A stretch of 64,000 nt of DNA from assembly GCA_963762145.1 (NCBI GenBank), contig CAVXJS010000022.1:73885-137884 (forward strand), written 5' to 3'. This DNA is from an uncultured Candidatus Rokubacteria bacterium. Lineage in GTDB: Bacteria; Methylomirabilota; Methylomirabilia; Rokubacteriales; CSP1-6. Under the pieces are notes generated by a model. The model saw only the letters and a program-made list of their open reading frames with translations, did no database searches and was not told the DNA's origin. This document shows positions 9,178 through 36,471 of the stretch, piece after piece; position 1 is the stretch's first letter, and each line of letters begins with the position of its first letter. The translations under genes were made by a program, and so were the position numbers.

Positions 9178-9321
9178 CCTGGCTCAGGACCCCTACTCCT
9201 GGGGGGTGACGCAGTACGGCCAGAAGCCGAAAAGGTACATGTTGACTGGGGTTTGCGCTTCGACTAGAGTACCCCCTGTTCCCCCGCTACATAGACCATC
9301 CCCACGGAGGCGGATCGGTTC

Positions 9322-10452
9322 ATGATCACGGTTCCCGCGCACCGCGTGAAACAGTTCGGGGTGGAGTTCTTTCAGGCGTCCTTCTCGGCCAAGGACATCG
9401 ACCGCCTCGTGAAGTTCGAGGTCCTGGGCTACAGCGGGGCCGAGGAGCCCCCGAAGGGGAAGCAGCGCGCGAACCGAGCGCGGGTGAACTGGGAAGCGCT
9501 CGAGAAGCGGATCGGCGAGAGCGAGACCGCCTACCAGCGCCCGGTCATCCGACGGAAGATCGACGAGCTCGTGGGCTACTATCGCGATTGCAAGGACGCG
9601 GGGACCCTGCCCGCGATTCCCGGCGCGGTGATCATCACCTCGGAGAAGCGCTTCACCTTCACGCCGATGGCGAGCCAGCACGACCTCGGCCTGCTGCAGA
9701 TCCCGGAGGAGCACGGCGTGCTCCGCGTGCTGGACGGCCAGCATCGCCTGCTCGCGCTGCACGCGCTGACCCAGGCGGGGGAGAACCTCGGCATCGAGGT
9801 ACCCGCGGTGCTGTTCGACCGACTGGACGCGCGCCAGATCGTCGAGCTGTTCGTCACCATCAATGCCAAGCACACGCGCCTCAATCCCTCGCACATCGTG
9901 AGCCTCGCCGGGCGCAAGCTCTACCCGGATCCCAACCAGGCTCTCGCTCACGACGTGATCCGCTCGCTGAACGAGGACGAGACCTCCCCGCTCGCGGGCG
10001 ACATCAAGATGCTCGGCACCGGCCGCGGGCGCGTCTCGCAGGCCCCGCTCGCCGAGGAGATCGTGGACTTCCTGGACGCGGTCGAGAAGATCGGGGGCGG
10101 CGCGCGCATGAACGAGGTGCGCCACCACGCCAAGCGCTTCTTCCTGAACTACATGAAGGCGGTCGCGGGCGTGTTCCCGACCGCGTGGGCCGGCCGCAAG
10201 TACTCGATCAAGACCGGCGCAGCCCTGCGCGCGTTCATCCGCGTGGCGCCCGACGTCATGGCCCGCGCCCGGGAGCTCAAGCGCGACGCCTTCGACTTCC
10301 ACGCCATCCGCGAGGCGGTGAAGCCCTGGGGTGACCGCCTCAAGGACCGCCGCTTCGAGACCGAGGGCGAGTGGAAGAACAAGCTGCAGGGCGGGACGCG
10401 GGGGACGGTCGAGGCGCTGACGCGGGAGCTGCGGGAGGCGCTGCGGAACTAG
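9322..10452 (+). CDS. DGQHR-domain protein (DndB-like, ParB/sulfiredoxin-fold family)
   Basis: Intact 376-aa ORF with a GGAGG RBS upstream. Literal DGQHR motif at residues 138-142 (nt 9733-9747). It also has the upstream YQRP motif and the FVTINAKHTRLN block characteristic of DndB/DGQHR proteins. Confidence 0.8.
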   Translation: MITVPAHRVKQFGVEFFQASFSAKDIDRLVKFEVLGYSGAEEPPKGKQRANRARVNWEALEKRIGESETAYQRPVIRRKIDELVGYYRDCKDAGTLPAIPGAVIITSEKRFTFTPMASQHDLGLLQIPEEHGVLRVLDGQHRLLALHALTQAGENLGIEVPAVLFDRLDARQIVELFVTINAKHTRLNPSHIVSLAGRKLYPDPNQALAHDVIRSLNEDETSPLAGDIKMLGTGRGRVSQAPLAEEIVDFLDAVEKIGGGARMNEVRHHAKRFFLNYMKAVAGVFPTAWAGRKYSIKTGAALRAFIRVAPDVMARARELKRDAFDFHAIREAVKPWGDRLKDRRFETEGEWKNKLQGGTRGTVEALTRELREALRN

Positions 10453-10589: not shown

Positions 10590-11075
10590 TTACTGCGGCG
10601 GCTCCAGCTTGAAGTTGGCCGCAAGGATATCGAAAGTCTTCTTGCCCGCCGGGAGCGTGGCGGTCACCGTGTCGCCGACCTTCTTGCCGATGATGGTGCG
10701 GGCGAGCGGGGACATGATCGAGATCAGGCCGCGCTTGGGGTCCGCCTCGTCCGATCCCACGATCTGATAGATCGCCTCCTTGCCGTCCTCGTCCTCGAGC
10801 CGCACCGTGGAGCCGAAGGTGACCCGATCCCCGGAGGTCGGCGGATCGATCACCTCGGCGGTGCCGACCTTGGCCTCGAGATCCGAGATGCGCGCCTCGA
10901 TGAAGCCCTGCCGCTCCCGCGCGGCATGATATTCCGCGTTCTCGCTGAGATCGCCGTGGGCCCGCGCTTCCGCGATGGCCCGCACGATGCTGGGGCGCTC
11001 CTTCTTGAGCCGCTCCACTTCCTCCCGCAGGTGCTCGTAGCCCGGGCGCGTCATCGGCGTGCGCTGAACGCTCAT
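10590..11075 (-). CDS. greA: transcription elongation factor GreA
   Basis: 161 aa. The coiled-coil N-terminus carries [15 protein letters not shown]. The C-terminal domain follows the GreA pattern. Confidence 0.95.
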
Positions 11076-11626
11076 GACCCGATCACCTCATCGCTCCGCT
11101 TCACCTCGGCGAGGAAGCCGTTCAGGCTCCCCAGGTGCGTGCGGTGGACCTGATCGTGGGGGATGACCGCGCCGTCGGGCCCCTTGACGTCCATCGCCGC
11201 GGTGGCGTCGGATAGCAGGGTCACCTTGAAACCGCGATGCGCCGCTTCCCGGGTGGTGGTGTCGCAGCACATCTGGGTCATGAACCCGGAGACGATCACC
11301 CGCTCGATGCCGAGCTTCCGGAGCGCGGACTCGAGCGGCGTGTTCGTGAACGAGCCCGGGAGGTGCTTGGTGATCACCGGCTCGCCCGCCGCGGGGGACA
11401 CCGCGTCGTGGATCGCGAGCGCCGGGCTGCCCGGCACGAAGGTGGCGGCGCCGGGCCGCTGGCTCTCGTGCACGATGTGGAAGACCGGCATCCGGCTCGC
11501 GCGCGCCCATCGCAGGGTCTCCGCGATGCGCGCCACCGCCTTCGGCCCGTCCGGCAGCACGACCTTGCCGATCGGGGCGAAGTACTCCCGCTGGGCATCG
11601 ATGATGAGGAGCGCGGTCTTGTCCAT
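11072..11626 (-). CDS. isochorismatase-family hydrolase
   Basis: 184 aa starting [16 protein letters not shown], with [17 protein letters not shown]. It is embedded in the chimeric 830-aa ORF 11072..13564. Its stop overlaps the greA start. Confidence 0.85.
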
Positions 11627-11643
11627 CGCGGGGCCCTCGTCGT

Positions 11644-13564
11644 TCAGCGGGTGAGGGTGGCGGGCTGCCCGCCGACCTGAACCTTCGAATCCGCGAGCCG
11701 GCCCCGGATCCAGTTGTCCCACGCGAGCGCGCGCTTCTGCTCGAGCACCTGCTTTTCCAGCTCCGCGCGCTCCTTCTCGAGACCGTCGGGGGCGGCCGCC
11801 GTGCGCTCGAGCGTCTTGACCACGTAGACACCCCCGTCGGCGCGCACCGGCTCCGCGACCTGGCCCGCGGGCGTCTGCAGCGCGGCCACCAGCACGCCGC
11901 CGGGCAGGCTCCCCCGCTCCTTCGGTGGATCCGAGCGCGAGAACATCGGAATGCTCCCGGTGCTGAAGCCGTCGGCCTTGGCGGCCGCGCGCGAAATCAC
12001 CGCCCTTGCCCAGGGCCGCCACCAGGGCCTTCGCCTTGTCGGTCACCTGCTGCTCGGCGCGCTCCCGCTTGATCGCTTCCACCACGCGATCCCGGATCTC
12101 CGCCACCGGCGGCACCCCGGCCGGGATCTGCTGCTCGATCTTGACGATCGCGATGCCGCCCGCGGTCTTGATCGGGGTGGAGACCCCGCCCACCGTGAGC
12201 CCGAAGAGGGTCTCGTCGAGCGCCGGATCGCGACCGGCCTCGCCGAGCGCGTCGCCGCGGCCGAAGGTGGCCTCGTGGGCGTCGAGGCCGAGCCGCTTGG
12301 CCTCGGCGCGGAAATCCTTGGCCGACAGCAGCGCGGCCCGCACCTCGTCGGCCCGCGTCTGCGCGGCCTGCTCGCTCTTCTGCGCGGTGAGCATCTCCTT
12401 GATCCTGGCCGCGACGTCCTTGAGCGGAGCCTGGCCCCCCTCCTTGATGTCGAGCACCCGGATCGCGTGATAGCCGAAGGGGGTGCGAACCGGAGCCGCC
12501 GAGATCTCACCCTTCTTGAGCGCGAAGGCGGCCTGCTCGAAGGGCGCCACCAGCTCCCCCGCCCCGACGAAGCCCAGGTCGCCGCCCTGGACCGCGCTGG
12601 CCTTGTCCTCGGAGATCTCACGAGCGAGCTTGGCGAAGTCCTCGCCACCCTTCGCGCGCTTGATGACGTCCTCGACCTTCGCCTTCGCCGCGTTCTCCGC
12701 GTCGCTGCCTCCCACCGGGGGCACCCGCACGAGCACGTGGGACACCCGCAGGCGCTTCGGCTCGTCGAACTCGGCGGCGTGCTCCTTGTAGTAGGCTTCC
12801 ACCTCCGCGTCCGACACGGTGACCGCGGCCTTCTTGGGGCTCAGGATCACGTACAGCAGCTTCCGCCGCTCGGGCTGGCTGAACTGGGGCTGGTGCGCCT
12901 TCACGTAGGGCTCGAGGTCGGCGTCGGCCACCTGCACCGAGGCCATCACCGGCTTCACGTCCGCGTAGGCCCACGCCGCGCGCACTCGCTCGTGACGCTC
13001 CCGGTACGCGTGCTGGACCTCCTCGTCGGATACCTTCACGCCCTGCTTGATCAGGCCTTCCATCTTGCGGCGCACGAGCTGCCGGCGAACCTCGTTCTCG
13101 AACTCGCCCGGATCGAGCCGAAGCTGCTTGAGCACCTTGATGTACTCGTCGCGCGAGAAGCGCCCGCCTTCCTGGAACTCCCGGATCTGCTGGATGGTGG
13201 TGCGCAGCTCGTCGTCGCTCACGAGCACGCCCTCCTTGACCGCGCCCTGGATCACCACCGCCTCGGTGACGAGCTCGTTGACCACCTGCTGCGAGACGCC
13301 GAGCCGCTCCGCGAGCTCGGGGGTGAGGCGCTGACGGGACATCCGCTCGTAGGCCGCGATGGTATTGGCCTGGGCGCGACGGAACCGCTCGAAGGGGATC
13401 TCCTCGCCGTTGACCACCGCCACCGAGTTGCCGGGGACGCCGCTCGAGGGCCCACTGCCCCAGTAGAAGAGCACGCCCGAGGTCAGGATGAAGACCACGA
13501 CGACGATCAGGAGCACGATCTTCAAGCTCCTGGCATATTCGCGCATCATGCTGATCACTGCCAC
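11644..13564 (-). pseudogene. ppiD: PpiD-like periplasmic chaperone / parvulin-type peptidyl-prolyl isomerase with one apparent frameshift
   Basis: N-terminal TM anchor, SurA-N-like region and a parvulin block (VSHVLVR...[21 protein letters not shown]) are in the frame of ORF 11072..13564. The C-terminus is in ORF 11644..12000. The frame switch lies at about 11985-11995. Confidence 0.75.
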
Positions 13565-13635
13565 GACCTCCTAGGAATTGGTGAACGCGGTCGAGGCCTT
13601 AGCCTACCACAGCCCGGGAGGCGCCCCGGCCGGCC

Positions 13636-15024: not shown

Positions 15025-15855
15025 TCAGTCGCTCTCCGGGTCCGCCACCCGCGGGAGCGCGACGCCCTCTTCCGGCACCACCCGCCGGGCCACCGTGAGG
15101 AACCCGGTGTGGGCGACCATCCGGTGGAACGGCCGCACCGACGTGCCGTCGATGTTCCACGGCCGCAGCAGCGTCTCGAAGGTCTCCACGAGCGCGTAGC
15201 CGCGGTGGCGCCGGAGCGTCTCGGTGAGGGTGTGGGACTGGATGATCGTCGGCAGGTAGGACAGGAAGATCCCGCCCGGCCGCAACACGGTGGCCACCAG
15301 ATCCACGAGCTTCCAGGGCTCCGGCAGGTCGAAGACCGCGCGATCCACCGGCTCCTCCTCGGGGAGCCCGTCCTCCACCGGGCGGATCCGCACGTTCAGA
15401 TTGCCGACCTCGCCCATGCGCAGGTGGATGTTGGCCAGCGCGCGGCGGCAGAAATCCTCGCGCTGCTCGTAGCTCACCACGCGGCCCTCGGGGCCGACCG
15501 CGCGCAACAGCGCGAGGGTGAGCGCGCCCGAGCCCATGCCGGCCTCGAGCACGCGGGCGCCCGGGAAGATGTCGGCCCAGAACATGACCATGGCCAGGTC
15601 CTTGGGATAGATCACCTGGGCGCCGCGCGGCATGTCGAGCACGTACTCTGCCAGCGTGGGACGCAGCGCGAGATACCGCGTGCCCTTGGAGGTGCGCACC
15701 CAGGAGCCGTCGGGGTGCCCGATGATGGCTTCGTGGGTCACCCAGCCCCGGTCGGAGTGGAAGGTGTCGCCCTTGCGGAGCAGCAGGAGATGCCGCCGAC
15801 CGCGCTGGTCGATCAGCAGGACCTGCTCGCCGTCCTGAAACTTATCCAGCGCCAC
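15025..15855 (-). CDS. trmI: tRNA (adenine-N1)-methyltransferase, TrmI/GCD14-like
   Basis: 276 aa with an N-terminal beta domain and the SAM motif VLEAGMGSGALTLALLRAVGPEGRVVSYE. Confidence 0.8.
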   Translation of the reverse strand: MALDKFQDGEQVLLIDQRGRRHLLLLRKGDTFHSDRGWVTHEAIIGHPDGSWVRTSKGTRYLALRPTLAEYVLDMPRGAQVIYPKDLAMVMFWADIFPGARVLEAGMGSGALTLALLRAVGPEGRVVSYEQREDFCRRALANIHLRMGEVGNLNVRIRPVEDGLPEEEPVDRAVFDLPEPWKLVDLVATVLRPGGIFLSYLPTIIQSHTLTETLRRHRGYALVETFETLLRPWNIDGTSVRPFHRMVAHTGFLTVARRVVPEEGVALPRVADPESD

Positions 15856-18339: not shown

Positions 18340-19747
18340 TTAGAGGTTGGTGGGGTGCGCGGGGCGGTCCTCGCCGAGCGCCTCGTTCAGGGCGCGGGCG
18401 AGCTGCTGATCGTGCTCGTGGCTCATCGCGAAGATCCGGCACTGGGCGACCTTGCCGGGCAGGTACTTCAGCAGCTCCTTGAGCGGCTCGGCCGACACGC
18501 TGCGGTCCGCCGCGTCGTACACGTAGATCTGCCGGTCCTTCATGCCGATCGGGTTCAGCGGGCGCGGGTCCTGCTGGGCCATGTCGATCTTGAACGGGAA
18601 GTTGCGAAGGCCGGGCGGCAGGCAGATCCTTCACCCGCTGCTCGACCTCCTCCGCCTTCATGAAGCTCTGGCCCCGCCGCGGCTCGAAGAGATCGAGGAC
18701 CACCTCATGCGACATGCGCCACTTGAGCCGGCGGTCGAGGATCTGCCGCCACTCCCGGCCGAGGTCCCGGCGCTCCCCGTCGTCGGAGTGCTCCCAGCGC
18801 GCGACCTCCTCGAGCAGCGTCCACTCCGTCATGTTGCAGGTACGGCTGGAGCTCCTTGTTGAGGTCGTGGGGGAAGATCAGCCGCATGGTGTCGCGGAAG
18901 ATGTCCTTGAGATGCAGGTCGATGCCGCGCGTGGTCCGGTGGTAGTAGACGTTGGTGTAGAGGTAGAACCGCGCGTTCAGGAACATGATGAACGCCTGGA
19001 TCCCGCCGCGGTCGAGCGTGAGCCCCTTCTCGCTGAAGAAGGAGTAGTACATGATGCGCTCGATGTCGATCGGCCCCACCGCGACCCCGCACATGTAGGA
19101 GTCGCGCAGCACGTAGTCCATGTTGTCGGCGGTGTAGATGCCCGGAGAGCAGCGGCTTGAGATGCGCGAGCCAGCGCGGATGCTCGGCGGTGGGAAACGT
19201 GTAGCTCTTGCCCATCAGGTAGCAGATCCACTCGGGGTCGATGCGCTCGCCGCTCTCGAAGGGGCCCGACGGGCTGCGCCGGAGCCCGCGGATCAGCTCG
19301 CCCAGCTCCTCCCGGATGATGCGCTGGCCGACCTTCTCGTGGGTGAGATCGAAGTCGGCCAGGAAGTTGTCGTCGAAGAAGTGGCCGAAGGGGCCGTGGC
19401 CCACGTCGTGGAGCAGACCCGCCACGCGGAGCAGCTCCTCGAAGAGCGGCGCCGACGGCGCGTCGGAGAACTCGGCCTTGAGCGAGGCGTGGAGCTGCTG
19501 GGCGAAGCGCCCGGCCAGGTGCATCGCGCCCAGCGAGTGCTGGAAGCGGCTGTGCTCGGCGGCCGGGAATACCCAGCGCGCGGACTGCAGCTGCGGCACG
19601 CGCCGCAGGCGCTGCATCCACGGCCGAGTCGATGAGGTCCTGCTCGGTGGCTTCCCCGGGGACCCCGTCGGGCCGCGTGTAGAGGATGTACTGATGAATG
19701 GGGTCGGCGATGAGACCACGACCCTGGTAGGTGTCCACGCCCTTCAT
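18340..19747 (-). pseudogene. HD-domain phosphohydrolase (SAMHD1/dGTPase-like) with at least 4 frame disruptions
   Basis: One continuous homologue is spread over ORFs 18977..19747, 18829..19719, 18705..19121, 17141..18832 (N-terminal part) and 18340..18582. HD motif HSLGAMHLA...LLHDVGHGPFGH. Switches lie near 19622, 19142, 18837 and 18625. Confidence 0.7.
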
Positions 19748-19761
19748 GGCTAGAGCCTAAC

Positions 19762-20788
19762 CTACTTGTCGGAGGTCCGATAGAAACGGTAGCGATCCAT
19801 CGGCCGCACCGCGATGGCCTCCGTCGCGCCGGCGCGGCGGACGGTCACCCGCACGTCCTGATCCATCGGCGCCTGCCAGAGCTCGCGGTAGAAATCCTCG
19901 CGGCTCGCCACCTGCCGCCCGTTGAGCTGGACGATCACGTCGCCCGCCCGCAGGCCCGCGGCCCGCGCCGGGCTCGAGCGGCGACATGCCGGCCACCACG
20001 ACGCCGCCGTCCACCGACTCCGTGTAGAGACCGAGCCAGGGCGCGGGGCGCGCGGCTCGTCGACGCGGCCCTGCGCCAGCAGCTCGTCCTTGCCGGCGAG
20101 GAACTTGTCGATCGGGATGGCCAGGTTGACGTGGGGCGCCTCGCCCAGGCGCAGCGAGGTGACGCCGATCACGCTGCCCGCGGCGTTGACGAGCGCGGCG
20201 CCGCCGAAGGCGGCATTGTACGGGGTCACGATGAAGGCGCGGTCCAGCATGTACTCCCAGGCGGCCGCGAACGGCCGCACCGCCTGGACCCGGCTCGGGG
20301 TGGCCACCAGGTCGCCGTCGTCCGACACGCCCACCGTGCCGGTGGTGTCGCCGGCCGTGACCATCGTCGAGTCGCCCAGGGTCGCGGCCGGCCACGGCCC
20401 GCGGCCCTCGAGCTGGGCCACCCCGACCCCGACCTCGAGATCGAGCCCGACGAGCCGCGCGGGTACCTTGCGTCCGTCGCGGAGCGAGACCTCGATGCGT
20501 GAGGCGTCGAGCAGGACATAGCTCACGGTCAGGAGGTAAGCCCTGGTCGGCGTCGAAGATGACGCCGCTGCCCCAGCGCTCGACGCCGAGCGTGGCCGCC
20601 GACGGCCGGTCACGCGGCACCTCTACCCGGAGCCCCACCACCGCCGGCTCGACGCGGCGGATCTGGGAGGCGAGTGGAGAGATCTGACGCGGGTCGAGGC
20701 GGCGGTCGGCGTCGCGGGGCGCGGCCGCCGCGGGGAGGGCCAGGGCCAGCAGGCCGACAGCCGCCCAGCGGATCGGCGCGCGCGACAT
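19762..20788 (-). pseudogene. DegP/HtrA-like S1C-fold protein with PDZ domain, catalytic triad apparently replaced, at least 3 frame disruptions
   Basis: Signal peptide MSRAPIRWAAVGLLALALPAAAAP. GSGVIFDADQG-YLLTVSYVL parallels DegP GSGVIIDADKGYVVTNNHVV. The PDZ-like C-terminus contains GLRAGDVIVQLNG. Frame switches lie near 20540, 20050 and 19975. Confidence 0.65.
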
Positions 20789-20793
20789 GCCGG

Positions 20794-21795
20794 TTACCTC
20801 GCGGTGTACTGCGTCTGGTAGTACTGCCGGAACGCGCCCGACTTGATGGGCTTCCACCACGCGTCGTGCGCCCGGTACCACTCCACGGTCTCGGCCAGCG
20901 CCTGGTCGAAGCTCGCGGCGGGCGCCCAGCCGAGCGCGCGGACCTTGCTCGAGTCGAGCGCGTAGCGGCGGTCGTGCCCGGGCCGGTCCGCCACCGGCGT
21001 GATCAGGCTCTCCGGCTTGCCGAGCAGGCTCAGGATCCGGTGCGTGAGCGTCACGTTCTGCACTTCCGCGGCGCCCCCGATGTTGTAGATCTCGCCGTCC
21101 ACGCCCCTTGCGGAGGACGAGGTCGATCGCCGCGCAGTTGTCGAGCACGTAGAGCCAGTCGCGCACGTTGCGGCCGTCGCCGTAGAGCGGCAGCGCGCGA
21201 TCCTCGATCGCGTTGGTGACGAAGAGCGGGATGACCTTCTCCGGATACTGGTACGGCCCGAAGTTGTTGCTGCTGCGGGTGACGAGCACGGGCAGGTGAT
21301 GGGTGGTCCAGTAGGCGCGGGCCAGGAGATCCGCGGCCGCCTTCGAGGCCGAGTACGGATTCGACGGATTCAGCACGTCGCTCTCGCGGGCCGCGCCCTC
21401 CGCGATGCTCCCGTACACCTCGTCGGTGCTCACCGCGAGGAAGCGGCCGATCTTGAGCTCGCGCGCGGCCTCCAGCAGGGTGAAGGTGCCGGTCACGTTG
21501 GTCCGGAGGAAGTCGTCGGCGCCCAGGTTCGAGCGGTCCACGTGGGTCTCGGCCGCGAAGTGCACGACCGCGTCCATCCCGGCCATGGCCTCGCGAACCA
21601 CCGCGCGCGTCGCAGATGTCGCCCTTGACGAACCGGTAGCGGGGATTCGTCTCGACGTCGCGCAGGTTCTCGAGATTCCCCGCGTAGGTGAGCTTGTCGA
21701 GATTGACGACCGCGTCGCCGGGATGGCGCGCCAGGACGTGGCGGACGAAGTTGGAGCCGATGAAGCCGGCGCCGCCGGTGACGAGGATCTTCATC
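20794..21795 (-). pseudogene. rfbB: dTDP-glucose 4,6-dehydratase with 2 frame disruptions
   Basis: [18 protein letters not shown]-terminus (frame of ORF 21051..22160). The middle part carries the YSASKAA catalytic motif (frame of 19757..21601). The C-terminus is ORF 20794..21102. Switches lie near 21610 and 21107. Confidence 0.8.
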
Positions 21796-21796
21796 C

Positions 21797-22351
21797 TATC
21801 CCCGGGTGACGTCCCAGATGTCGGCCCCGGCGAAGTCCCAGGGCAGCCGCCCCTCTTCGGTCTGATCCGGATCCGCCGAGAACTGCACGTCCACGAAGTA
21901 GATGATGCGGCCGCGCGATGGCCGCGAGGTTCTTCACCCCGTGGGCGACCCCGGGGGGGATCCGCAGCAGCCGCGTCTGGCCGTCGCCGAGCACGATCCG
22001 GCGCTGGGCCCCGTGCGTCCGGCTGTGGGCCCGCACGTCCAGCAGCACCACCAGCATCTTGTCGCCGGGCGGCACGAACCACACGTCGGTCTGGCGGCGG
22101 TGCAGGTGAAACGCCTTGATCACGCCGGCGTCCATCTCGCTGTAGTTCACCTGGCGGCACTCGAAGCCGGGCAGCGACGCCGGGATCCCCTGCTGCAGCC
22201 GCGCCAGCTCCATGAAGGACCCGCCGTCGTCGGTGAACCGCTTGAGCTCCACGACCTGCACGCCCTCGATCTCGGGCGCGGCCCCGTAGTCCTGCAGGGC
22301 AAAGGCCCGCTTGGCCGCGTCGCTCAGCTCGATCGGGTCGCGCGAGGCCAT
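21797..22351 (-). pseudogene. rfbC: dTDP-4-dehydrorhamnose 3,5-epimerase (RmlC-type cupin) with 1 frame disruption
   Basis: MASRDPIEL...[11 protein letters not shown]...[27 protein letters not shown]...[12 protein letters not shown] is in the frame of ORF 21791..22816. The C-terminus [36 protein letters not shown] is in another frame and ends at stop 21797-21799. The switch lies near 21905. Confidence 0.7.
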
Positions 22352-23412
22352 CAGATCAGACCCACCTCGCTGCGATCGCCCAGCATGAAGTTGAACGAGC
22401 GCGGCTTGGACGCGGTCCGGTGAATGGACACGTTGCGCCCGATCAGGCTCGACTCGATGCGCCCGCCCACGTCGGTCACGCTCGCGCCCTCGAGGATGAT
22501 GGAGTGCTCCACCTCGCTGGCGCGGAGCACCACCCGGTCGCCGATCGACGTGAACGGGCCCACGTAGGCGCTCTCGATGACCGCGTCGCGGCCGATGATC
22601 GCCGGCCCGCGCACCGTGCTCTTGATCACCCGCGCGCCCGCCTCGATCACCACCCGGCCGACGATCTCGCTGTCCTCCACCGTCCCGTCGGTCCGGGGCA
22701 TCAGGGTGTCCAGGATGATCCGGTTGGCCTCCAGCATGTCCTCGAGCTTGCCGGTATCCTTCCACCAGCCCTCGATGATGTGGGGCCGTACGATGTGACG
22801 CTGGTCGATCAGCCACTGGATCGCGTCGGTGATCTCGAGCTCGCCGCGCGCCGACGGCTTGATGGCCTTGACCGCCTTGAAGACCGTCGCGTCGAACATG
22901 TAGACGCCGACCAGGCCCAGGTTGGAGGGCGGATCCTTCGGCTTTTCCACCAGGCGCACCACCTGCCCGTCCTTCAGCACCGCGACGCCGAACTGGGTCG
23001 CGTCGGGCACGGCCGCGAGCAGGATCTGGCAGTTGGGCTTCTCGTCGCGGAAGCGCGTGACCAGGGGCTCGAGACGCTCACGGATCAGGTTGTCGCCCAG
23101 GTACATGCAGAACGGCTCGGTGCCGAGGAACGGCTCGGAGACGAGCACCGCGTGCGCGAGGCCCAGCGGGGCCTCCTGTTCGATGTACGTGATCGACACC
23201 CCGAACCGGCTGCCATCCCCGACCGCGTCGCGGATCTCCTGCCGGGTGTCGCCGACCACGATCCCGATCTCCCGGATCCCCGAGGCGGCCAGCGCCTCGA
23301 TCCCATAGAAGAGGATGGGCTTGTTGGCCACCGGAACGAGCTGCTTCGCCGAGGTGAACGTGATCGGACGGAGACGCGTGCCCCGGCCCCCGGAGAGGAT
23401 TAGCCCTTTCAT
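22351..23412 (-). CDS. rfbA: glucose-1-phosphate thymidylyltransferase (long form with C-terminal left-handed beta-helix)
   Basis: Intact 353-aa [35 protein letters not shown] nucleotidyltransferase motif. Its stop overlaps the rfbC start (ATGA). Confidence 0.85.
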
Positions 23413-23498: not shown

Positions 23499-23540
23499 GA
23501 ACGTACTGAAATCGCTGAGACTTTCATCCAGGAGCGGGTG

Positions 23541-24761
23541 ATGGCGACGTTGAAGGATATGCTGGCAGACGCCCGGCGGGTGGTACCCGAGCAGGGGCCG
23601 GCCGAGGTCAAGAAGCGAATCGACGCCGGGGAGCCGCTCGTCCTGATCGACGTCCGCGACCCGGACGAGTACCGCGACGGCTTCATCGAGCCCGCGACGA
23701 ACATCAGCCGCGGCTTCCTCGAGTTCCGCATCGGCGGCGCGGCGGCGGATCCGACGACGCCGATCGTGCTGTACTGCCAGAGCGGCCTCCGGTCGATGCT
23801 CGCCGCCAAGGCCCTCCGCGACCTCGGCTACGAGAACGTGACCAACCTGCAGGGCGGCTTCCAGAAGTGGGCGCAGTCCGGCCTGCCGGTGGCCAAGGAC
23901 CGCCCGATGAACGCCGAGCAGATCCAGCGCTACAGCCGTCACTTCCTGCTGAGCCAGGTGGGCGAGAAGGGCCAGCGCAAGCTGCTCCGCTCGAAGGTGC
24001 TGCTGATCGGCGCGGGCGGGCTCGGCTCGCCGACCGCGCTGTATCTGGCCGCGGCGGGTGTCGGCACGATGGGCCTGATGGACGGCGACGTGGTGGACGT
24101 GTCGAACCTGCAGCGGCAGATCCTCCACACCACCGCGAACGTGGGGCGGCCCAAGGTCGAGTCGGGCACCGAGATGATCCGGGCGCTGAATCCGGACGTC
24201 AACGTCATCCCGCTGCCGACGCGCATCACCGTCGACAACGTGATGGACATCATCAAGGACTACGACCTGGTCATCGACGGGTCGGACAACTTCGACACTC
24301 GCTACCTGATGAACGACGCCTGCTACCTGGCGGGCAAGACCAACGTGCACGGCTCGATCTTCCAGTTCGAGGGTATGGCCACCGTGCTCGCCCCGAACCA
24401 GGGCCCGTGCTACCGCTGCCTCTACCCGACGCCGCCGCCCCCCGGGCTCGTCCCCAGCTGAAGCGAGGCCGGCGTCCTGGGCGTGCTCCCAGGCATCATC
24501 GGAGTGATACAGGCCACCGAGGCCATCAAGGTGCTGCTCGGCATCGGCGAGCCCCTGATCGGCCGGCTCCTGACCTACGATGCGCTCGGCATGCGCTTCC
24601 GCGAGGTCAAGCTACGCCGCGACCCCAAGTGCCCGCTCTGCGGCGAGCACCCGACCATCACGGACCTCTCGATTCACAGCGGCACCGCGGACGGCTGCGC
24701 GGTCAGTGACAATGGCCATACCGCGCCCGCGGCCGCACCAGCCGCGACACCGCGCGGGTAG
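23541..24761 (+). CDS. rhodanese + MoeB/ThiF-type adenylyltransferase fusion, interrupted by a single in-frame TGA (24459-24461; Sec candidate or nonsense)
   Basis: ORFs 23538..24461 and 24483..24761 share one frame. The N-terminal rhodanese has the active-site loop CQSGLRS. The ThiF/MoeB Rossmann motif is LLIGAGGLGSP, and the zinc motifs are CYRC...CPLC. The TGA falls where PSC(A/S)E(A/G)GVLG has its Cys. Confidence 0.75.
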
Positions 24762-26271: not shown

Positions 26272-26348
26272 TGGCGCGCCTGGAGGGATTCGAACCCCCG
26301 ACCCTCGGCTTAGAAGGCCGATGCTCTATCCAACTGAGCTACAGGCGC
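26272..26348 (-). tRNA. tRNA-Arg (anticodon TCT), CCA encoded
   Basis: Manual cloverleaf: GCGCCTG TA GCTC AGTTGGATA GAGC A TCGGC CTTCTAA GCCGA GGGTC GGGGG TTCGAAT CCCTC CAGGCGC G CCA. Confidence 0.95.
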
Positions 26349-26350
26349 GT
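26310..26350. repeat. left 41-bp direct repeat (att site) of the integrative element = 5' half of tRNA-Arg
   Basis: ttagaaggccgatgctctatccaactgagctacaggcgcgt is identical to 56103-56143. Confidence 0.9.
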
Positions 26351-26357
26351 TAGGTAC

Positions 26358-27569
26358 TTACGATACACCGGGCGAGGGCGACCCGCCCGACTCGAAGTTT
26401 TCTCGAAGTTCCGTAAACCTTACGCTAGCCGGGACCAGGCGCTCTACGGCCTCTTGTAGGTGGTCCGGGGCGAGGTGGGAATACCTCTGGACCATCCCCA
26501 GAGTTCGCCACCCGCCGAGGGCCTGGATCGACCGGAGGTCGACTCCAGCCATGACTAGTCGCGACGCGAAAGTGTGCCGATTACAGTGCCACGTATAGCC
26601 ATCCAGGCGACTCGCGTCCCTTCCGGCCGCCAGTAAGGTCGCCCGCGCGCGCTCGACGGCCTTAGGGAAGAACTTATCAGGCTGCTTATGTAGGCACGCG
26701 AAGACGGGTTCCTCCGGATCGTTCGGCGTGCGCCGCATCGCCGCAAGATCGAGCAGAACAGAGCGGACTATCGAATTCATGGGAACCTGCCGAGTGTATC
26801 CAGTCTTGGACTGTCGCACGCGTATTTGTTGGACAAGAACATCTATGTCCTGCCATTCCAAGGCGAGTTGTTCGCCCCAACGAAGACCCGTGTGGACAGA
26901 AACAATGAACAGAGGTTGAAGGTCAGGGTGGAGGGCATCACGGACTATCCGTTCCTCTTCGCCCAACAGGAACTTGATCCGACCCTCAGGCTCCTTGAAC
27001 TTCCCTACGCCCGTTACAGGATTCGTAGTCGCATGACCGTGCCGGATGGCCCGGTTGAACATGGCATGCAATAACGTCCGATATCGGTTCCGGGTGGAGT
27101 GGGACCGCTCCTGGAGCAACCCGTCCAGAAAGCTATCTACGTCGCGAGGAGTGACCGCATCGAGTTTCATTCCGCCGAAAGCCTTCTTCATCAAGTCGAC
27201 ACGGCTTTCCTCGGTGCGCCATCCGCGATGGTGCAGCTTCGACCAAATGAGGTACTGCTCACCATACTCACCAAATGTCACGCGGCGGGCCTCGGTCTGG
27301 CGCTCCGCTAGTGCGCGTTCTCGTGCCCTCCGCCGCTCCTCCTTCGGGCACCAACCTGGCTCGTCATGGGCCCTCGCTCGTCGAGCGTGGTATGCGCGCA
27401 AGGCAACGCTTTTGATCGGTCCGGCCTTCTCTTGATGGATATGGCCAACCGCGCACGTATATCGAATGCCCCATTCCTCGGACGGATGACGGAACAAACC
27501 GGGAGGGGCCTGGTCCTTCTTACGGGTCGACCAACTCCGGTGACTGCGGGGCACCTCATCACCGTTCAT
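26358..27569 (-). CDS. tyrosine recombinase / phage-type integrase
   Basis: Intact 403-aa ORF. Catalytic region TGLRWGEQLAL...HCNRHTFASRLVMAGVDLRSIQALGGWRTLGMVQRYSHL (R..HxxR..Y). Its stop lies 9 nt from the tRNA 5' end. Confidence 0.9.
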   Translation of the reverse strand: MNGDEVPRSHRSWSTRKKDQAPPGLFRHPSEEWGIRYTCAVGHIHQEKAGPIKSVALRAYHARRARAHDEPGWCPKEERRRARERALAERQTEARRVTFGEYGEQYLIWSKLHHRGWRTEESRVDLMKKAFGGMKLDAVTPRDVDSFLDGLLQERSHSTRNRYRTLLHAMFNRAIRHGHATTNPVTGVGKFKEPEGRIKFLLGEEERIVRDALHPDLQPLFIVSVHTGLRWGEQLALEWQDIDVLVQQIRVRQSKTGYTRQVPMNSIVRSVLLDLAAMRRTPNDPEEPVFACLHKQPDKFFPKAVERARATLLAAGRDASRLDGYTWHCNRHTFASRLVMAGVDLRSIQALGGWRTLGMVQRYSHLAPDHLQEAVERLVPASVRFTELRENFESGGSPSPGVS

Positions 27570-27638
27570 GGTTTGCTCGTGGACCGGGGGCCGGTAGGCC
27601 TCGTGGGATCAACCATCTTCTATAGGAGCCCACACGGT

Positions 27639-28271
27639 TCATCTCGCGCTCTTTTTCAGCATTCGCCTATTTCGCATCCTTTGCGAGCACACGCTTGAGC
27701 AGTATATCTGCCGTTTACTCGCTACTAACCACGCACCGCATTCCGTACACGATCGGAGTCGTGATCCGGACACTAAGATAAGATTGAACAGGCCTCTCAC
27801 GATCGCCCCTCCCTCATCATCCTCCCAATAGAGGAGTGGTCGGCCCACAGACCGCCCCCGTTCGCGTACAAGAAAAACCCGCCCTTGCGAAGGGACAGGC
27901 AAACGCTCACCGGCAAGGTAAGTCTGAATGGCTTTCCGGAGCGTGGCATGGATCGTCCGGATCTTCTGGTCGGCTAGTGGTCCAACTGTCACTCGATAGC
28001 TCGAATCACTAGGTATCAAAACCCGGAGGCCGTAGCCGAGGGACTCCCGTTCTGCTGAACTCAATTCTTCAAGATCCAATTGAGCGAAAGCGACAGCCCA
28101 TCTAAGCTGAGCCGTCGGCCTTCCGGGCATTTCCTTCTGAGCACGGTCCATCTGGTGCCGATACTCCTGCACTTCGGACCACGATGGGCGCCTCGCGAGC
28201 CGGACGCGTGATCGGCCTAAGGCCTGCGATAGGGCTCGTCCATTCCTAGTCTTCCCGCCCATAGGCTTCAC
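27639..28271 (-). CDS. hypothetical protein with C-terminal CxxC...YCSxxCxxRxRxRR zinc-ribbon tail
   Basis: 210-aa ORF between int and the Xis-like gene. C-terminus CTECGAWLVASKRQIYCSSVCSQRMRNRRMLKKSAR (CGNR-like topology). Confidence 0.55.
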   Translation of the reverse strand: MKPMGGKTRNGRALSQALGRSRVRLARRPSWSEVQEYRHQMDRAQKEMPGRPTAQLRWAVAFAQLDLEELSSAERESLGYGLRVLIPSDSSYRVTVGPLADQKIRTIHATLRKAIQTYLAGERLPVPSQGRVFLVRERGRSVGRPLLYWEDDEGGAIVRGLFNLILVSGSRLRSCTECGAWLVASKRQIYCSSVCSQRMRNRRMLKKSAR

Positions 28272-28360
28272 CCCTCCCGATCGCTCCCGATCCCTCTCAA
28301 TCGCTCTTTATCGTTCCCTCTCTAAGTCTACCGCCCTACGGCGTCTATGTAAAACAGTAT

Positions 28361-28390
28361 TTAACTTCGGTACGATAATCATACTATAAT
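28361..28390 (+). promoter_or_regulatory. possible sigma70-type promoter of the xis/replication operon
   Basis: TTAACT (28361-28366), 18 nt spacer, TATAAT (28385-28390), in an AT-richer divergent intergenic region. A GGAAGGAG RBS precedes ATG 28436. Confidence 0.3.
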
Positions 28391-28435
28391 CGTCTTACGA
28401 TCGCTAAGACCAATCTCGTTCGGAAGGAGACGCCT

Positions 28436-28657
28436 ATGAAACAATCCATGAATCTCGAGGAAGCTGGAAAATTTATAGGGGTCTCCCCGCACACGCTCCG
28501 GGTATACGCGCGCACGGGGCGGGTGACGCACTTCAAAATCGGCCGCAGACTCGTCTTTGATCGAGCCGACCTTGAAGAATTTCTCGCCACAAAGAAAAAG
28601 CCAGCCCACATTGCGCCGGCAACGACCGCAGGACGTGGTTCGGGCCGCAAGCTCTAA
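28436..28657 (+). CDS. excisionase-family helix-turn-helix DNA-binding protein (Xis/AlpA-like)
   Basis: 73 aa. LEEAGKFIGVSPHTLRVYARTGRVTHFKIGRRLVFDRADLEEFL matches the excisionase/MerR-like HTH pattern. Confidence 0.8.
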   Translation: MKQSMNLEEAGKFIGVSPHTLRVYARTGRVTHFKIGRRLVFDRADLEEFLATKKKPAHIAPATTAGRGSGRKL

Positions 28658-28846
28658 ACGGCGGGAGTGCCGCCGTGACTTCCGCGCCCCAACCATGCTC
28701 TGCGCGTACCTCGACACAACGGTCCCAAGCAAGACTCGGTTCTTGGGGATACTACCCAACTTCCACGTCTGGAGGGCCATGCGGATGTCAGGGGCCGACC
28801 GCGAGCGGCTGGCCGGGCGAGGGCCGGACCACGCTCGGAGCCGACC

Positions 28847-30055
28847 ATGACTAGGGACGACCAGATCACGGTTTCAGCTACACGTTCGGCCCGAGCGTAT
28901 CTGAAGGATGGGTTCAAGGTCATCCCAGTGCCCGCGGGTAAAAAGGGCCCACGTATTAAACGATGGCAAGAACTCAACATCTCGAGGCAGGAGGTCGCCC
29001 AACATTTCAACGCTCGCAACAACATCGGGGTGCTGCTAGGCGCGAAGGCAGACTGGCTCGTCGACGTCGATCTGGACGCCGATGAGGCGGTGACAGCGGC
29101 AGAGGCTTTCTTGCCCAAGACGGGCTGGGTCCACGGTCGCCCGGGGAAGCCGAGGTCTCATCGGTTTTATAGGGCCAAAGGCGTGAAGACGAAGCGGTTC
29201 ATCGATCCGAAGGGCCAGTGCCTCGTCGAGCTCCGGAGCACGGGTTGCCAGACCCTTGTCCCGCCAAGCCTTCATCCTTCCGGGGAGCGTTACCGGTGGG
29301 ACCAGCAAGGCAAACCGAACCGCGTTCCGGCCAAAGAACTCTACCAGCGTGTCGCCCGCGTGGCCGCCTGCACGCTGATCGCGCGGAGCTGGCCGAAGCG
29401 GGGAGATCGCCACTCCTGTGCGCTGGCCCTCGCGGGCTTGCTTCTCGGGGCGGGTTGGTCGGCCAAGCAGGTCGAACATTTCCTCGCGACGGCCGCTCGG
29501 ATCGCGGGCGACGAGGAGTATAGGAAGCGGACCAGCGTTGTCCGGGATACCAAGAAAAGGCTGTCGATGGGCAAGCCCGTCACCGGACGTCGTGCGCTCG
29601 AGAAGATCCTCGGCGCTTCGGTTGTCCATCTCATCTCGGATTGGCTCGAAGCTACGCCGAATCCTGCGAAGGGCCCTCGCGACCGGAGCTCGGAAAACCG
29701 TGATTTCAACCTGACGGCCGTCCGTCTGCTCGAGCTGGATCAGCCTCAGCGTCGGATCGTTGAAGTCAAGGCCGAGATCGCAGGTGCGGTTGAGACATTC
29801 CACGTCCTCCCGGCTGTCGTGAGGGATGCCAAGAAGTTGGCCAGCGTCATAGCGGATCGCCCAGGGGAGATGCTCAACAATGATGATCCGCGACTGGTCC
29901 GACTTCGTCACCAGATTCCTAGCATTCCGCGCGTTCACGCCGTCTCACAACTCGGCTGGACGGCCACACACGACGTCTTTATGTACGGTACGCGTCCCCT
30001 GCGAACCGCCGGCTTCCATGGGGAGGCTATCTTTCTCACCGGCGAGACACGGTGA
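28847..30055 (+). CDS. bifunctional DNA primase/polymerase (Prim-Pol, AEP superfamily) domain protein
   Basis: 402 aa. The N-terminus YLKDGFKVIPVPAGKKGPRIKRWQE...NIGVLLG...VDVDLD...HRFY follows the Prim-Pol N-terminal domain pattern. Confidence 0.8.
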   Translation: MTRDDQITVSATRSARAYLKDGFKVIPVPAGKKGPRIKRWQELNISRQEVAQHFNARNNIGVLLGAKADWLVDVDLDADEAVTAAEAFLPKTGWVHGRPGKPRSHRFYRAKGVKTKRFIDPKGQCLVELRSTGCQTLVPPSLHPSGERYRWDQQGKPNRVPAKELYQRVARVAACTLIARSWPKRGDRHSCALALAGLLLGAGWSAKQVEHFLATAARIAGDEEYRKRTSVVRDTKKRLSMGKPVTGRRALEKILGASVVHLISDWLEATPNPAKGPRDRSSENRDFNLTAVRLLELDQPQRRIVEVKAEIAGAVETFHVLPAVVRDAKKLASVIADRPGEMLNNDDPRLVRLRHQIPSIPRVHAVSQLGWTATHDVFMYGTRPLRTAGFHGEAIFLTGETR

Positions 30056-31260
30056 TGTCGGCCGTACCGGATCTGGACCCGAAGGGAACACGACAAAAGC
30101 AGTATCACTACCTGCGAGAGCTATGGAAAGAACCCATGGGTCGCTTGGTGCTCGCGCTGTCGGCAGCATCGCCAGCCCTCGAGCTCGTTGGCGCCCCGAC
30201 GACCGTCTTTCACCTCGCGGGGCCGACGGGGATCGGCAAGTCCTGCTTGTTCCGGCTCGCGATTGCTGTCTACGGAAACCCGGGCGGGTCACTCCTGCGC
30301 TTCGATGTGTCGAAGGACACGCAGAACTACATGGATGCGCGACTCGGCATCGTCCGACATTTCCCCGTCCTAATTGACGAGACCACGTTGCTTGATTCTG
30401 ACGCGATCAGCAAGCTTGCCTACAATGTGGCGCTGGGCGCAGATAAGGGTCGGCTCGGCGGAACGGACAAGGGCTTTACACCCACTGATCCCAATCCCTA
30501 TCGCCTGGTGGCCCTAATGTCGGGCGAGCATTCCATCCGCGACCAAGTTGAGCATAGCGGTGCGACGGCGCGAATCGCCGAGATCGTTCTGGACAAGCCC
30601 ATCTTTGAAGTTACCGAGTTGCGTCGGTGGTATCAGCGTGCCGACTACCATCATGCTTGGATCGGCCGCGACCTCATTCAGAGCGTGATCACGAGGTACC
30701 AGGGGGACGAGACCAATCGGTGGGCTCGGCTATTCAAGCTCTACAACCGCATCCACCAGAACACCGCGAAGTGGTGTCACAATCACGGGCGGGTGATTGA
30801 TTTTCTGGCCGTGCTGCAGCTTGGATTCGTCCTAATGTATCGCCAGCTCATGATGAAGTTCCGGCCCCTCCGACACGGAGAGCTGAAGACGATCCGTGGG
30901 AAGGCGCGCACATTTGCAAGGCAGATCTATGGGCAGCTCAACCTCGTCGTTGGGGTCGATCACGTCCTGAATGAGATCCGGCAGCTTCCGAAGATCTACC
31001 GGTGGGTGAAGAAGGGTCTCGTGCCGCTCCGCATCCTCGAGCCCGTCGCCATCCGTCTAGGGATGGTTCAGCGGGGTCGGCTCACCGCGATGCTGAAGAG
31101 ACACAATATTAGTTCCGGCGTTCAGCCCCGGCAGATCCAGTTCAACAAGACAGCGGCCCGAATTTCTTGTCGCTGTGTCCTGCTGACCACGGAAGGTATG
31201 AAGCGCCTTTCGGATAGGTATGAACACAACCGAGTCTTCAGGCGGAGGAGACTAAGCTGA
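30052..31260 (+). CDS. DUF927-like P-loop NTPase (SF3-type helicase partner of Prim-Pol)
   Basis: 402 aa overlapping the Prim-Pol stop. Walker A GPTGIGKS, Walker B PVLIDETT. Position and size are typical of DUF927 helicases. Confidence 0.75.
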   Translation: MMSAVPDLDPKGTRQKQYHYLRELWKEPMGRLVLALSAASPALELVGAPTTVFHLAGPTGIGKSCLFRLAIAVYGNPGGSLLRFDVSKDTQNYMDARLGIVRHFPVLIDETTLLDSDAISKLAYNVALGADKGRLGGTDKGFTPTDPNPYRLVALMSGEHSIRDQVEHSGATARIAEIVLDKPIFEVTELRRWYQRADYHHAWIGRDLIQSVITRYQGDETNRWARLFKLYNRIHQNTAKWCHNHGRVIDFLAVLQLGFVLMYRQLMMKFRPLRHGELKTIRGKARTFARQIYGQLNLVVGVDHVLNEIRQLPKIYRWVKKGLVPLRILEPVAIRLGMVQRGRLTAMLKRHNISSGVQPRQIQFNKTAARISCRCVLLTTEGMKRLSDRYEHNRVFRRRRLS

Positions 31261-34496: not shown

Positions 34497-35467
34497 ATCG
34501 CCGAACGTTCCTTAGCGGCCTTAGCGGCAGCCTCCTCGCCGCGCCGCTCGCCGCCGAGGCGCAGCGGCCGTCGAAGATCCCCGAGTCGGGCTCCTGAGGA
34601 CCGGCTCTCCTCCAGATCCGGCTCTCGACGCCTTCAAGCAAGGACTTCGCGAGCTTGGCTATGTCGAGGGACAGAACATAGTGCTCGACGTGCGCTTCGC
34701 CGCGGGACGGCTGGATCGGTTGTCCTCACTCGCCGTCGAGTTGGTCCGCCGCGACGTGGATGTAGTCGTGACGGGCGGGGAAGCCGCGATTCAGGCGGCG
34801 CGGGCCGCGACGCGCAACATCCCGATCGTATCGGCGCCAGCAACGATCCGGTCGGTGCCGGCCTCGTTGAAAGTCTCGCTAGACCCGGCGGGAACATCAC
34901 CGGCTCGACTATTCTGGCCCCAGAACTGAGCCGGAAGAGATTGACCTCCTCAGGGAGACGAGGCCAGGTATTGTCCGCGTGGCGGTTCTCTCCGACCCAA
35001 CGTCTTCGGGCACTGGGCGAGATCTGGAGGAAACGCAGAGCGCCTCTCGGGTGTTGGGCTTCACGCTCCAAGTCTGGACTGTGCGCGCCCCGAAGGACCT
35101 CGATGAGGCGTTTGTGGGTATGAGAAGAGAGCGTGCCGAGGCACTGATGACCCTGGCCGACCCGCTATTCACAGCATCGCGCGTGAAGATCGTCAAGCTG
35201 GCGGCGGCAACCCGTCTGCCCAGCGTCTACTACTGGAAAGATTTTGTCGATGCCGGCGGGCTCATGTCATATGGGCCGAGTCTCCAGGATCTCTATCGGC
35301 GGGCGGCCACCTACGTCGATAAGATCCTGAAGGGAGCCAAGCCGGGAGACCTCCCCATCGAGCAGCCGACGAAGTTCGAGCTGGTCATCAACCTCAAGAC
35401 AGCCAAAGCCCTCGGCCTGACGATCCCGCCCTCGCTGCTGCAGCGGGCGGATCAGGTGATCGAATGA
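34493..35467 (+). pseudogene. ABC_sub_bind-type (orphan) substrate-binding protein, multiply frameshifted
   Basis: MNRRTFLSGLSGSLLAAPLAAEAQRPSKIP start. Homologous segments lie in ORFs 34681..34929 and 34979..35467. Ends ...QPTKFELVINLKTAKALGLTIPPSLLQRADQVIE. Confidence 0.75.
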
Positions 35468-36471
35468 TGAAGCCACAAACCGCACGTGACCCAGGGATCA
35501 CACGGCGCACGTTCGTTGCGGGTCTTGCCGCGCTCGCAATCCCGCTTGATGCGAAGGCACAGCAGTCGGGACTCTCTGTGATCGGGTTCCTGAACGGCGC
35601 GTCGTATGAACTGTCTAAGCACCTCGTGCGCGCGTTCCACGAGGGCTTGGCGGAAACCGGCTATGTCGAGGGCCGCAACGTAACGGTCGAATATCGTTCC
35701 GCTGAAGGTCAGTATGATCGGCTCCCGTCACTGGCGGTCGATCTCGCTCGACTTCACGTCAACGTCATTGTCGCGACCGGCACGCCGACTGGCCTGCCGG
35801 CGAGGGCGGCCACGACGTCGATCCCGATCGTCTTCGTGACCGGCAGTGACCCGATCGAACAAGGCCTGGTCACGAATCTGAGCCGACCCACCGGCAATCT
35901 CACCGGCGCCACGACGCTTGCCGTGGAATTGGGCCGGAAGCGCATGGAACTGCTGAAGGAGTTGGTGCCGTCGGCGAAGCTCATGGGCGTGCTCATCAAC
36001 CCGACCGGTCCGAATCTCAAGGCTGTGCTGCACGACATACATGCGGCAAGCCGAACCGTTGGTCTGCCGATCCATATCGTCCATGCGAGCACCGAACGGG
36101 AGCTCGAGACCGCCTTTGCGTCGTTCGTCCAGCGACGGGTAAGCGCGGTCGTCATCGGCACCGATACCTTCTTCAATTCTCAGAGCGGAAGGCTCGCAGC
36201 CCTGACCGTTCGGCATGCCCTGCCCGCGGTCTACCAGTACCGCGAGTTTGTCGCGGCGGGCGGTCTCATGAGCTACGCCGGGAGCATCACAGACGCGTAC
36301 CGCGTCGCGGGGTTGTACACCGGGCGGATCCTCAAGGGGGCGAAGCCCTCCGAGCTGGCCGTCCAGCAGTCTACAAAGGCTGAGCTCTTCATCAATGCCA
36401 GAACCGCGAAAGCGTTCGGCCTCACGATCCAGCCCTCGCTGCTGGTGCGCGCGGATCAGGTGATCGAGTAG
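35464..36471 (+). CDS. ABC_sub_bind-type periplasmic substrate-binding protein (no cognate permease/ATPase adjacent)
   Basis: Intact 335-aa ORF with a Tat-like signal (TRRTFVAGLAALAIPLDAKAQQ). Family tail FGLTIQPSLLVRADQVIE. Confidence 0.9.
   Translation: MMKPQTARDPGITRRTFVAGLAALAIPLDAKAQQSGLSVIGFLNGASYELSKHLVRAFHEGLAETGYVEGRNVTVEYRSAEGQYDRLPSLAVDLARLHVNVIVATGTPTGLPARAATTSIPIVFVTGSDPIEQGLVTNLSRPTGNLTGATTLAVELGRKRMELLKELVPSAKLMGVLINPTGPNLKAVLHDIHAASRTVGLPIHIVHASTERELETAFASFVQRRVSAVVIGTDTFFNSQSGRLAALTVRHALPAVYQYREFVAAGGLMSYAGSITDAYRVAGLYTGRILKGAKPSELAVQQSTKAELFINARTAKAFGLTIQPSLLVRADQVIE

Follow-up and report, generated by a model that had tools for sequence, protein, structure and literature searches.

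A gene at positions 23541-24761 of a 64,000-nucleotide stretch of DNA from an uncultured Candidatus Rokubacteria bacterium (GenBank assembly GCA_963762145.1, contig CAVXJS010000022.1, positions 73,885 to 137,884; the whole stretch is hereafter called the window) very probably encodes a selenoprotein. Its product combines a rhodanese with a ThiF/MoeB-type adenylyltransferase, and its sole interruption is a single in-frame TGA at 24459-24461. We conclude, with a probability of roughly 0.9, that this UGA is a selenocysteine (Sec) codon served by its own selenocysteine insertion sequence (SECIS) hairpin. The original prediction, made from this DNA alone, had proposed a Sec codon at a conserved cysteine position followed by a SECIS element, and it is supported by the distribution of TGA and TGC among related genes and by the freezing of the hairpin sequence in the TGA genes.

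The gene is intact apart from one in-frame TGA

The open reading frames (ORFs) 23538..24461 and 24483..24761 lie in a common frame, with no further stop between them. Read through the TGA, 23541-24761 forms a single intact gene whose 406-residue product has a rhodanese domain followed by a MoeB/ThiF-type E1-like adenylyltransferase. The ThiF/MoeB domain (Pfam PF00899) spans the TGA and matches profile positions 1-237 of 238, i.e. it is full-length. The protein also scores 533.7 bits (cut-off 449) against the NCBIfam equivalog profile NF006444, "molybdopterin-synthase adenylyltransferase MoeB", covering positions 4-375 of 387; this profile takes in the N-terminal rhodanese. The rhodanese cysteine, both zinc-site CxxC pairs and the nucleotide-binding motif are all intact.

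We aligned the protein to E. coli ThiF, E. coli MoeB and Chaetomium Uba4 with the aid of structures 1ZFN, 1JW9 and 6YUB. In this structure-based alignment, the TGA column corresponds to the Cys of "NCRTAGVVG" in ThiF, "TCVEAGVMA" in MoeB and "SCGEAGIMG" in Uba4. The original prediction had described a continuous rhodanese and MoeB/ThiF product with the TGA at the equivalent of ThiF Cys184, and the domain matches and the alignment agree on both points. Its coordinates for the TGA, the ORFs, the stem arms and the loop, and its 14-nt spacing, all proved correct when we re-read the sequence.

The TGA is shared by most Rokubacterial genes

A scan of one genome per species yielded 80 loci, nearly all labelled Rokubacteria, Rokuibacteriota or Methylomirabilota. 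The aligned codon is TGA in 76 of the 80 species genomes and TGC in the other 4, which is the kind of TGC/TGA pairing among orthologues that the original prediction had suggested looking for. Counting every sequence that we compared, TGA is found in 84 of 88, with 77 distinct TGA genes. Protein searches recovered full-length homologues at 73-85% identity, 381-446 aa long (mostly 394-407), which read GLVPSC(A/S/G)EAGVLG. Closer relatives at 88-93% identity, represented by dozens of database entries, are all 306-307 aa long and all end in ...GLVPS.

The TGA genes group in a single clade with pairwise identities as low as 76%, so the codon has persisted over a long period of divergence; the four TGC genes fall in a clade of their own. 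Both forms occur together in two metagenome-assembled genomes (MAGs), CAVVEU01 (loci L008 and L052, on contigs 2 and 36), which is a close relative, and DATEMW01 (L055 and L064); these may be Sec/Cys isoenzyme pairs or the result of mixed bins. Across the species sampled, Rokubacteria normally have the enzyme in its Sec form.

All 88 sequences keep the frame open for 83-125 codons past the aligned codon. Nucleotide diversity over the three codon positions in turn is 0.13, 0.045 and 0.37 downstream of the TGA, and 0.125, 0.078 and 0.373 upstream. Because the pattern is alike on both sides, the downstream part is under the same protein-level selection as the upstream part. The terminal stop of the gene, reached in 87 of the 88 sequences, is TGA in 45, TAG in 36 and TAA in 6. 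Since TGA terminates this same gene in 45 sequences, it is still a stop codon in these organisms.

When we looked through the window and all related loci for other in-frame TGAs with coding signal on both sides, we found gene junctions only. The sole other such TGA in the window, at 15025-15027 on the minus strand, is the stop of a TrmI-like methyltransferase gene that is followed in frame by a xanthine/uracil permease. It is a plain gene junction and no Sec candidate.

The hairpin downstream of the TGA is frozen at synonymous sites

The hairpin consists of the arms cctggg (24476-24481) and cccagg (24488-24493) around the loop cgtgct (24482-24487), and its stem and loop lie 14 nt and 20 nt from the UGA, respectively. 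The second position of the loop is G, and U comes next. According to a 2026 review, the bacterial SECIS consensus has a loop of 3-9 nt, a stem of 4-16 bp, a G at loop position 1 or 2, a distance of 16-37 nt from UGA to loop, and an energy of -7.5 kcal/mol or lower. With a 6-nt loop, a 6-bp stem, 20 nt between UGA and loop and an energy of -10.5 kcal/mol, the hairpin lies within these published bounds, as the spacing given in the original prediction had suggested it would, and it is present in every TGA gene.

To quantify constraint, we calculated synonymous entropy in the 77 distinct TGA genes at the 160 columns where a 4- or 6-fold-degenerate codon is conserved; it averages 1.10 bits over the gene. 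Only 5 of the 160 columns have zero entropy, and these are five consecutive codons, GTC CTG GGC GTG CTC, at 24474-24488. The codon that follows is CCA in 74 of the 77 genes, though CCA is rare at other proline columns, and the sole variant, CCG, changes a U-A pair to U.G. The constraint ends at the edges of the hairpin: the GCN and GGN codons upstream and the GGA/GGC codon downstream are free at their wobble positions. The 18-mer that starts at 24474 exists in 2 versions, compared with a median of 48 for the other 18-mers of the gene.

The frozen sequence is strictly associated with the TGA. In the four TGC genes, the VLGVLPG peptide is the same but is spelled with other codons, and none of them has the exact 18-nt hairpin sequence. 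In the 680 kb compared, the exact hairpin motif occurs 84 times, once per TGA gene and nowhere else. The two codons right after the UGA are constrained as well. The first is AGC in 73 of the 77 genes and AGT in 4, with no TCN, and the second is GAG in all 77, compared with 48 GAG and 29 GAA at another Glu column. We infer that this reflects a UGA context effect. The case for Sec rests on this freezing of synonymous sites and on its strict link to TGA.

The gene belongs to a selenoprotein family known from marine bacteria

In 11 sequences from the Sargasso Sea, Zhang, Fomenko & Gladyshev (2005) reported a new selenoprotein family, "Molybdopterin biosynthesis MoeB protein", and the MoeB family was listed again in the 2008 Global Ocean Sampling (GOS) analysis and in a 2026 review catalogue. 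The Rokubacterial gene belongs to this family, differing in domain order and lineage. In the marine proteins, Sec is found at the identical alignment column (LVPS-U-..AGVLGVLPG), and the hairpin core, GGCGUGCUCC, lies 14 nt downstream and, read as GUC CUN GGC GUG CUC CCR GG, is nearly the same as the one described here. The corresponding DNA in the 2005 supplement reads TGA GCN GTT GCN GGN GTC CTN GGC GTG CTC CCR GGA. A ThiF/MoeB domain fused to a rhodanese is common to both groups, but the rhodanese follows the MoeB domain in the marine proteins (the MoeZ/Uba4 order) and precedes it in Rokubacteria (the PRK08762 type). The residues after Sec are AVAG in the marine proteins and SEAG in Rokubacteria, and the marine hosts are lower-GC bacteria, whereas those considered here are 70%-GC soil and groundwater Rokubacteria. 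We found no paper that describes the Rokubacterial form with its N-terminal rhodanese and Sec.

Three other systems are informative for comparison. The Cys-type rhodanese-MoeB proteins of NF006444 (PRK08762) have the same domain order and length at 73-85% identity, and share the rhodanese Cys, the zinc CxxC pairs and the nucleotide motif; they differ in having TGC in place of TGA, A or G in place of the following S, and hairpin codons that are not frozen. Uba4, MOCS3 and MoeZ likewise combine adenylation and rhodanese domains, and the recoded residue aligns with the catalytic cysteine of Uba4, but the Rokubacterial enzyme has the reversed domain order, Sec for Cys, and no carrier encoded nearby. 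Like the SECIS of E. coli fdhF, the Rokubacterial hairpin lies within the coding sequence immediately 3' of the UGA and has a small apical loop in which U follows G. Unlike it, the Rokubacterial hairpin has a stem of only 6 bp and no bulged U, and there is no sequence similarity between the two.

Results that weigh against selenocysteine

Several results speak against the Sec interpretation. Taken by itself, the hairpin folds only weakly better than chance (z = -2.15; 9 of 200 shuffles fold equally well), and the 72 nt after the TGA fold no better than shuffled sequence (z = 0.22), with the hairpin falling outside the minimum-energy fold. Because single-sequence folding was not significant, we dropped it as evidence and used synonymous-site conservation instead; the significance of the hairpin comes from the genome comparison and not from the energy of a single sequence. 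The stem shows no compensatory double substitutions, even with the marine sequences included. Three of its pairs show one-sided, wobble-compatible changes only, and 3 cells are mismatched; pair 4 is mismatched in 3 of the 7 marine sequences tested, a mismatch that the Rokubacterial stem lacks. Other hairpins of similar energy can form in some of the TGC genes, which is explained by the peptide LG..LPG itself favouring self-complementary codons. At the gathering threshold, a search of the whole window against Rfam returned a tRNA-Arg only, and at a permissive threshold the region 24400-24600 gave only a chance match to an internal ribosome entry site (IRES). No Rfam family matches the element, although Rfam has no bacterial SECIS model usable for this purpose.

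The machinery for Sec insertion was also missing from the 64-kb window and from roughly 620 kb of related flanks, neither of which contains selA, selB, selD or tRNA-Sec. In the window, a Pfam scan of 40 ORFs found no selA, selB or selD, and ARAGORN found no tRNA-Sec in the window and 87 related loci (682 kb). No sulfur-carrier gene of the MoaD/ThiS/CysO type was found in the window or in seven related loci (L001-L007); one may be present in another part of the genome. Our literature search found no experimental study of Sec chemistry at this E1-like catalytic site, and on Sec use in Rokubacteria specifically it returned phylum-level statements for Methylomirabilota only. At that level, a recent review mentions a Methylomirabilota MAG predicted to have 63 selenoprotein genes, and Sec-type hydrogenases have been reported from the phylum.

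Alternative explanations for the TGA

The alternative that survives best, although we consider it improbable, is that the UGA and hairpin are recoded as cysteine by a SelB-dependent tRNA-ReC (selC*), or that the UGA is read through as Trp or Gly. A tRNA-ReC decodes UGA as Cys when given a SECIS and co-occurs with Sec systems in several phyla, and the inserted residue cannot be told from sequence data alone. The source describing tRNA-ReC contains no report of it for Methylomirabilota, however, and finds it frequent mainly in genomes with UXXU-type hydrogenases. It would also be hard to explain why a costly UGA and SECIS should be kept over 76 species merely to insert a Cys that TGC could encode, and Trp or Gly is implausible at a catalytic Cys position.

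A second alternative is a nonsense mutation from TGC or TGT to TGA that has left a pseudogene. The many disrupted genes in the window are the kind of surroundings that would fit a pseudogene. Relative to a related locus (L007, on a contig with a MEGAHIT-style name), four consecutive genes upstream of RmlA, at 18343-22351 on the minus strand, are frame-broken with 1-4 switches each: the HD-domain gene is in 5 pieces in 3 frames, and the HtrA-like gene, the epimerase and RmlC are in 2, 3 and 2 frames, respectively. These disruptions are frame shifts and not stops, as the original prediction had remarked, and they look like long-read indel error; RmlA itself (22354-23412) is intact, and the rhodanese-MoeB gene never switches frame. 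A pseudogene would also not be expected to share its TGA with 76 of 80 species genomes, or to retain purifying selection downstream and a frozen hairpin beside the stop, and we regard this possibility as very unlikely.

It is equally unlikely that the gene is split, with translation stopping at the TGA and restarting at GTG 24483 to give two polypeptides that assemble. Gene callers do annotate products of 306 aa and 92 aa, as this hypothesis would predict. Nevertheless, the SEAGVLG stretch encoded by the seven codons from the TGA to 24483 is conserved at the amino-acid level, and variation at the Ala and Gly codons from the TGA to this first possible restart is purely synonymous, which excludes termination followed by re-initiation. 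Furthermore, the full-length Cys homologues are continuous, and the break would lie inside the ThiF fold, at its catalytic loop.

Least probable of all is a sequencing or base-calling error at 24461, for although indel-type errors are numerous nearby in this assembly, an assembly made independently from a different run (Logan SRR19330268) shows no difference over 111 nt that take in the TGA and hairpin, in agreement with the base on which the original prediction depended, and TGA is present in contigs with MEGAHIT-style, SPAdes-style and other names. Together, the TGA in 76 of 80 species genomes, the selection downstream, the frozen hairpin and the independent assembly rule out both a nonsense mutation and a base-calling error.

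Related long contigs are fragmented in a similar way to the window. One contig (L088; ENA ERZ25039586 contig_2616, 202,743 nt; positions 314-1279) shows no difference from the window at the TGA and hairpin, over 111 nt compared. The N-terminal part of its gene is called at 221 aa only, and there is one C/G difference in a poly-C run upstream (window position 24443), which is a further sign of homopolymer errors in these assemblies.

A proposed role for selenium in the enzyme

If the UGA is decoded as Sec, the SECIS paradigm suggests that the hairpin would bring in SelB with its Sec-tRNA(Sec) when a ribosome is at the UGA, and release factor 2 would thereby be outcompeted. The importance of the cysteine at this position differs between family members: Cys184 of E. 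coli ThiF enters an acyl-disulfide with ThiS, but MoeB can dispense with its counterpart, Cys187. In Uba4, the catalytic cysteine of the crossover loop forms a thioester with Urm1, and a rhodanese persulfide then attacks. The alignment places Sec307 at this crossover-loop cysteine, which in Uba4 forms the thioester with the adenylated carrier C-terminus. By homology, the enzyme would adenylate a carrier resembling MoaD, ThiS, CysO or Urm1, and Sec307 would attack the acyl-adenylate to give a covalent intermediate. The persulfide of the rhodanese Cys (codon 23775-23777) could then resolve the intermediate, as proposed for Uba4, giving a carrier thiocarboxylate that would serve the synthesis of molybdopterin, thiamin, cysteine or a thio-nucleoside. 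Selenium would be expected to speed both attack and release relative to sulfur.

A much more speculative idea, to which we give little credence, is that selenium is the cargo: the Sec/rhodanese pair would load selenium onto a ubiquitin-like carrier as a selenocarboxylate, via a mixed Se-S or selenoester intermediate. If this were true, the product would enter a Rokubacteria-specific pathway to a selenium-containing cofactor or nucleoside. In a weaker variant of this idea, the UGA might be read as Sec or Cys according to selenium supply, via a tRNA-ReC-type system.

Implications for annotation and selenoprotein discovery

Because the family and its Sec position have been known since 2005, the Sec reading leaves the general picture unchanged. 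It would mean that the Sec form is standard across a widespread soil and groundwater lineage, which fits recent reports of a selenoprotein-rich phylum, and that selenium is placed at the catalytic position of a ubiquitin-E1-like enzyme. Public gene calls consistently split the gene into a 306-aa piece and a piece of about 92 aa, and the annotation of many Rokubacteria and Methylomirabilota genomes is therefore wrong at this locus. The practical value of the Sec reading would be that this systematic mis-annotation can be corrected and that a compact SECIS core becomes available for the phylum. Being invariant and only 18 nt long, this core is a possible seed for finding other selenoprotein genes in the lineage.

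Layout of the gene and other features of the window

The features of the gene are collected in Table 1. We favour ATG 23541 over GTG 23538 as the likely start, because of the AGGAG at 23530-23534 and because relatives, which start with MKTLK, give a 306-aa part before the TGA.

Table 1. Positions in the window of the rhodanese-MoeB gene and its elements. Pfam residue numbers refer to a 407-residue translation that starts at GTG 23538 and has Cys in place of the TGA.
Feature	Position	Strand	Basis
Shine-Dalgarno-like AGGAG	23530..23534	+	read from sequence; 6 nt before ATG 23541
Complete gene of the probable selenoprotein	23541..24761	+	306 codons, UGA (Sec307), 99 codons, TAG
Rhodanese domain, N-terminal	23598..23876	+	Pfam PF00581, residues 21-113, E 7.7e-21
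Rhodanese active-site cysteine codon TGC (LYCQSGLRS loop)	23775..23777	+	loop conserved in every homologue listed
ThiF/MoeB adenylation domain spanning the TGA	23931..24635	+	Pfam PF00899, residues 132-366, E 5.7e-84
Nucleotide-binding Gly-rich motif GAGGLGS	24009..24029	+	sequence; aligned to ThiF, MoeB and Uba4 structures
First zinc-site CxxC (CYRC)	24408..24419	+	both Cys codons invariant in 77 genes
UGA probably read as Sec, at the crossover-loop catalytic Cys position	24459..24461	+	codon comparison and structure alignment
Two constrained codons right after the UGA (AGC GAG)	24462..24467	+	codon counts in 77 genes
Stretch frozen at synonymous sites (GTC CTG GGC GTG CTC CCA)	24474..24491	+	synonymous entropy
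Core hairpin of the probable SECIS	24476..24493	+	stem CCUGGG/CCCAGG, loop CGUGCU
Second zinc-site CxxC (CPLC)	24630..24641	+	aligned to the C-terminal CxxC of ThiF and MoeB
True stop codon TAG	24759..24761	+	sequence

The neighbours of the rhodanese-MoeB gene are Rml sugar-nucleotide genes, an HtrA-like gene, an HD-domain gene and a tetratricopeptide repeat (TPR) gene. Downstream of it, the window contains a tRNA-Arg(TCT) at 26272-26348 and a tyrosine integrase at 26361-27608, both on the minus strand, followed by a Prim-Pol at 28679-30052 and a DUF927 protein at 29923-31257. This region (26272-31257), in which the GC content drops from about 0.70 to about 0.60, probably represents an integrative element that entered at the tRNA gene. 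Related loci diverge downstream of the MoeB gene, and one of them (L002) likewise has an integrase there.

In its lower-GC half, the window also contains rve-type transposase ORFs at 41727-42335 (minus strand) and 54440-55516 (plus strand), and several ABC_sub_bind (PF04392) paralogues at 34883-36468 and 50248-52676. An ORF at 9295-10449 on the plus strand matches DndB, a DNA-sulfur-modification-associated family, with an E-value of 2.4e-15. On the minus strand at 11075-13570, a single frame encodes SurA/PpiD-like chaperone domains (residues 6-386) and then an isochorismatase domain (residues 652-797), and it may be a fusion produced by indel error. A second isochorismatase ORF is found at 521-1279, also on the minus strand.

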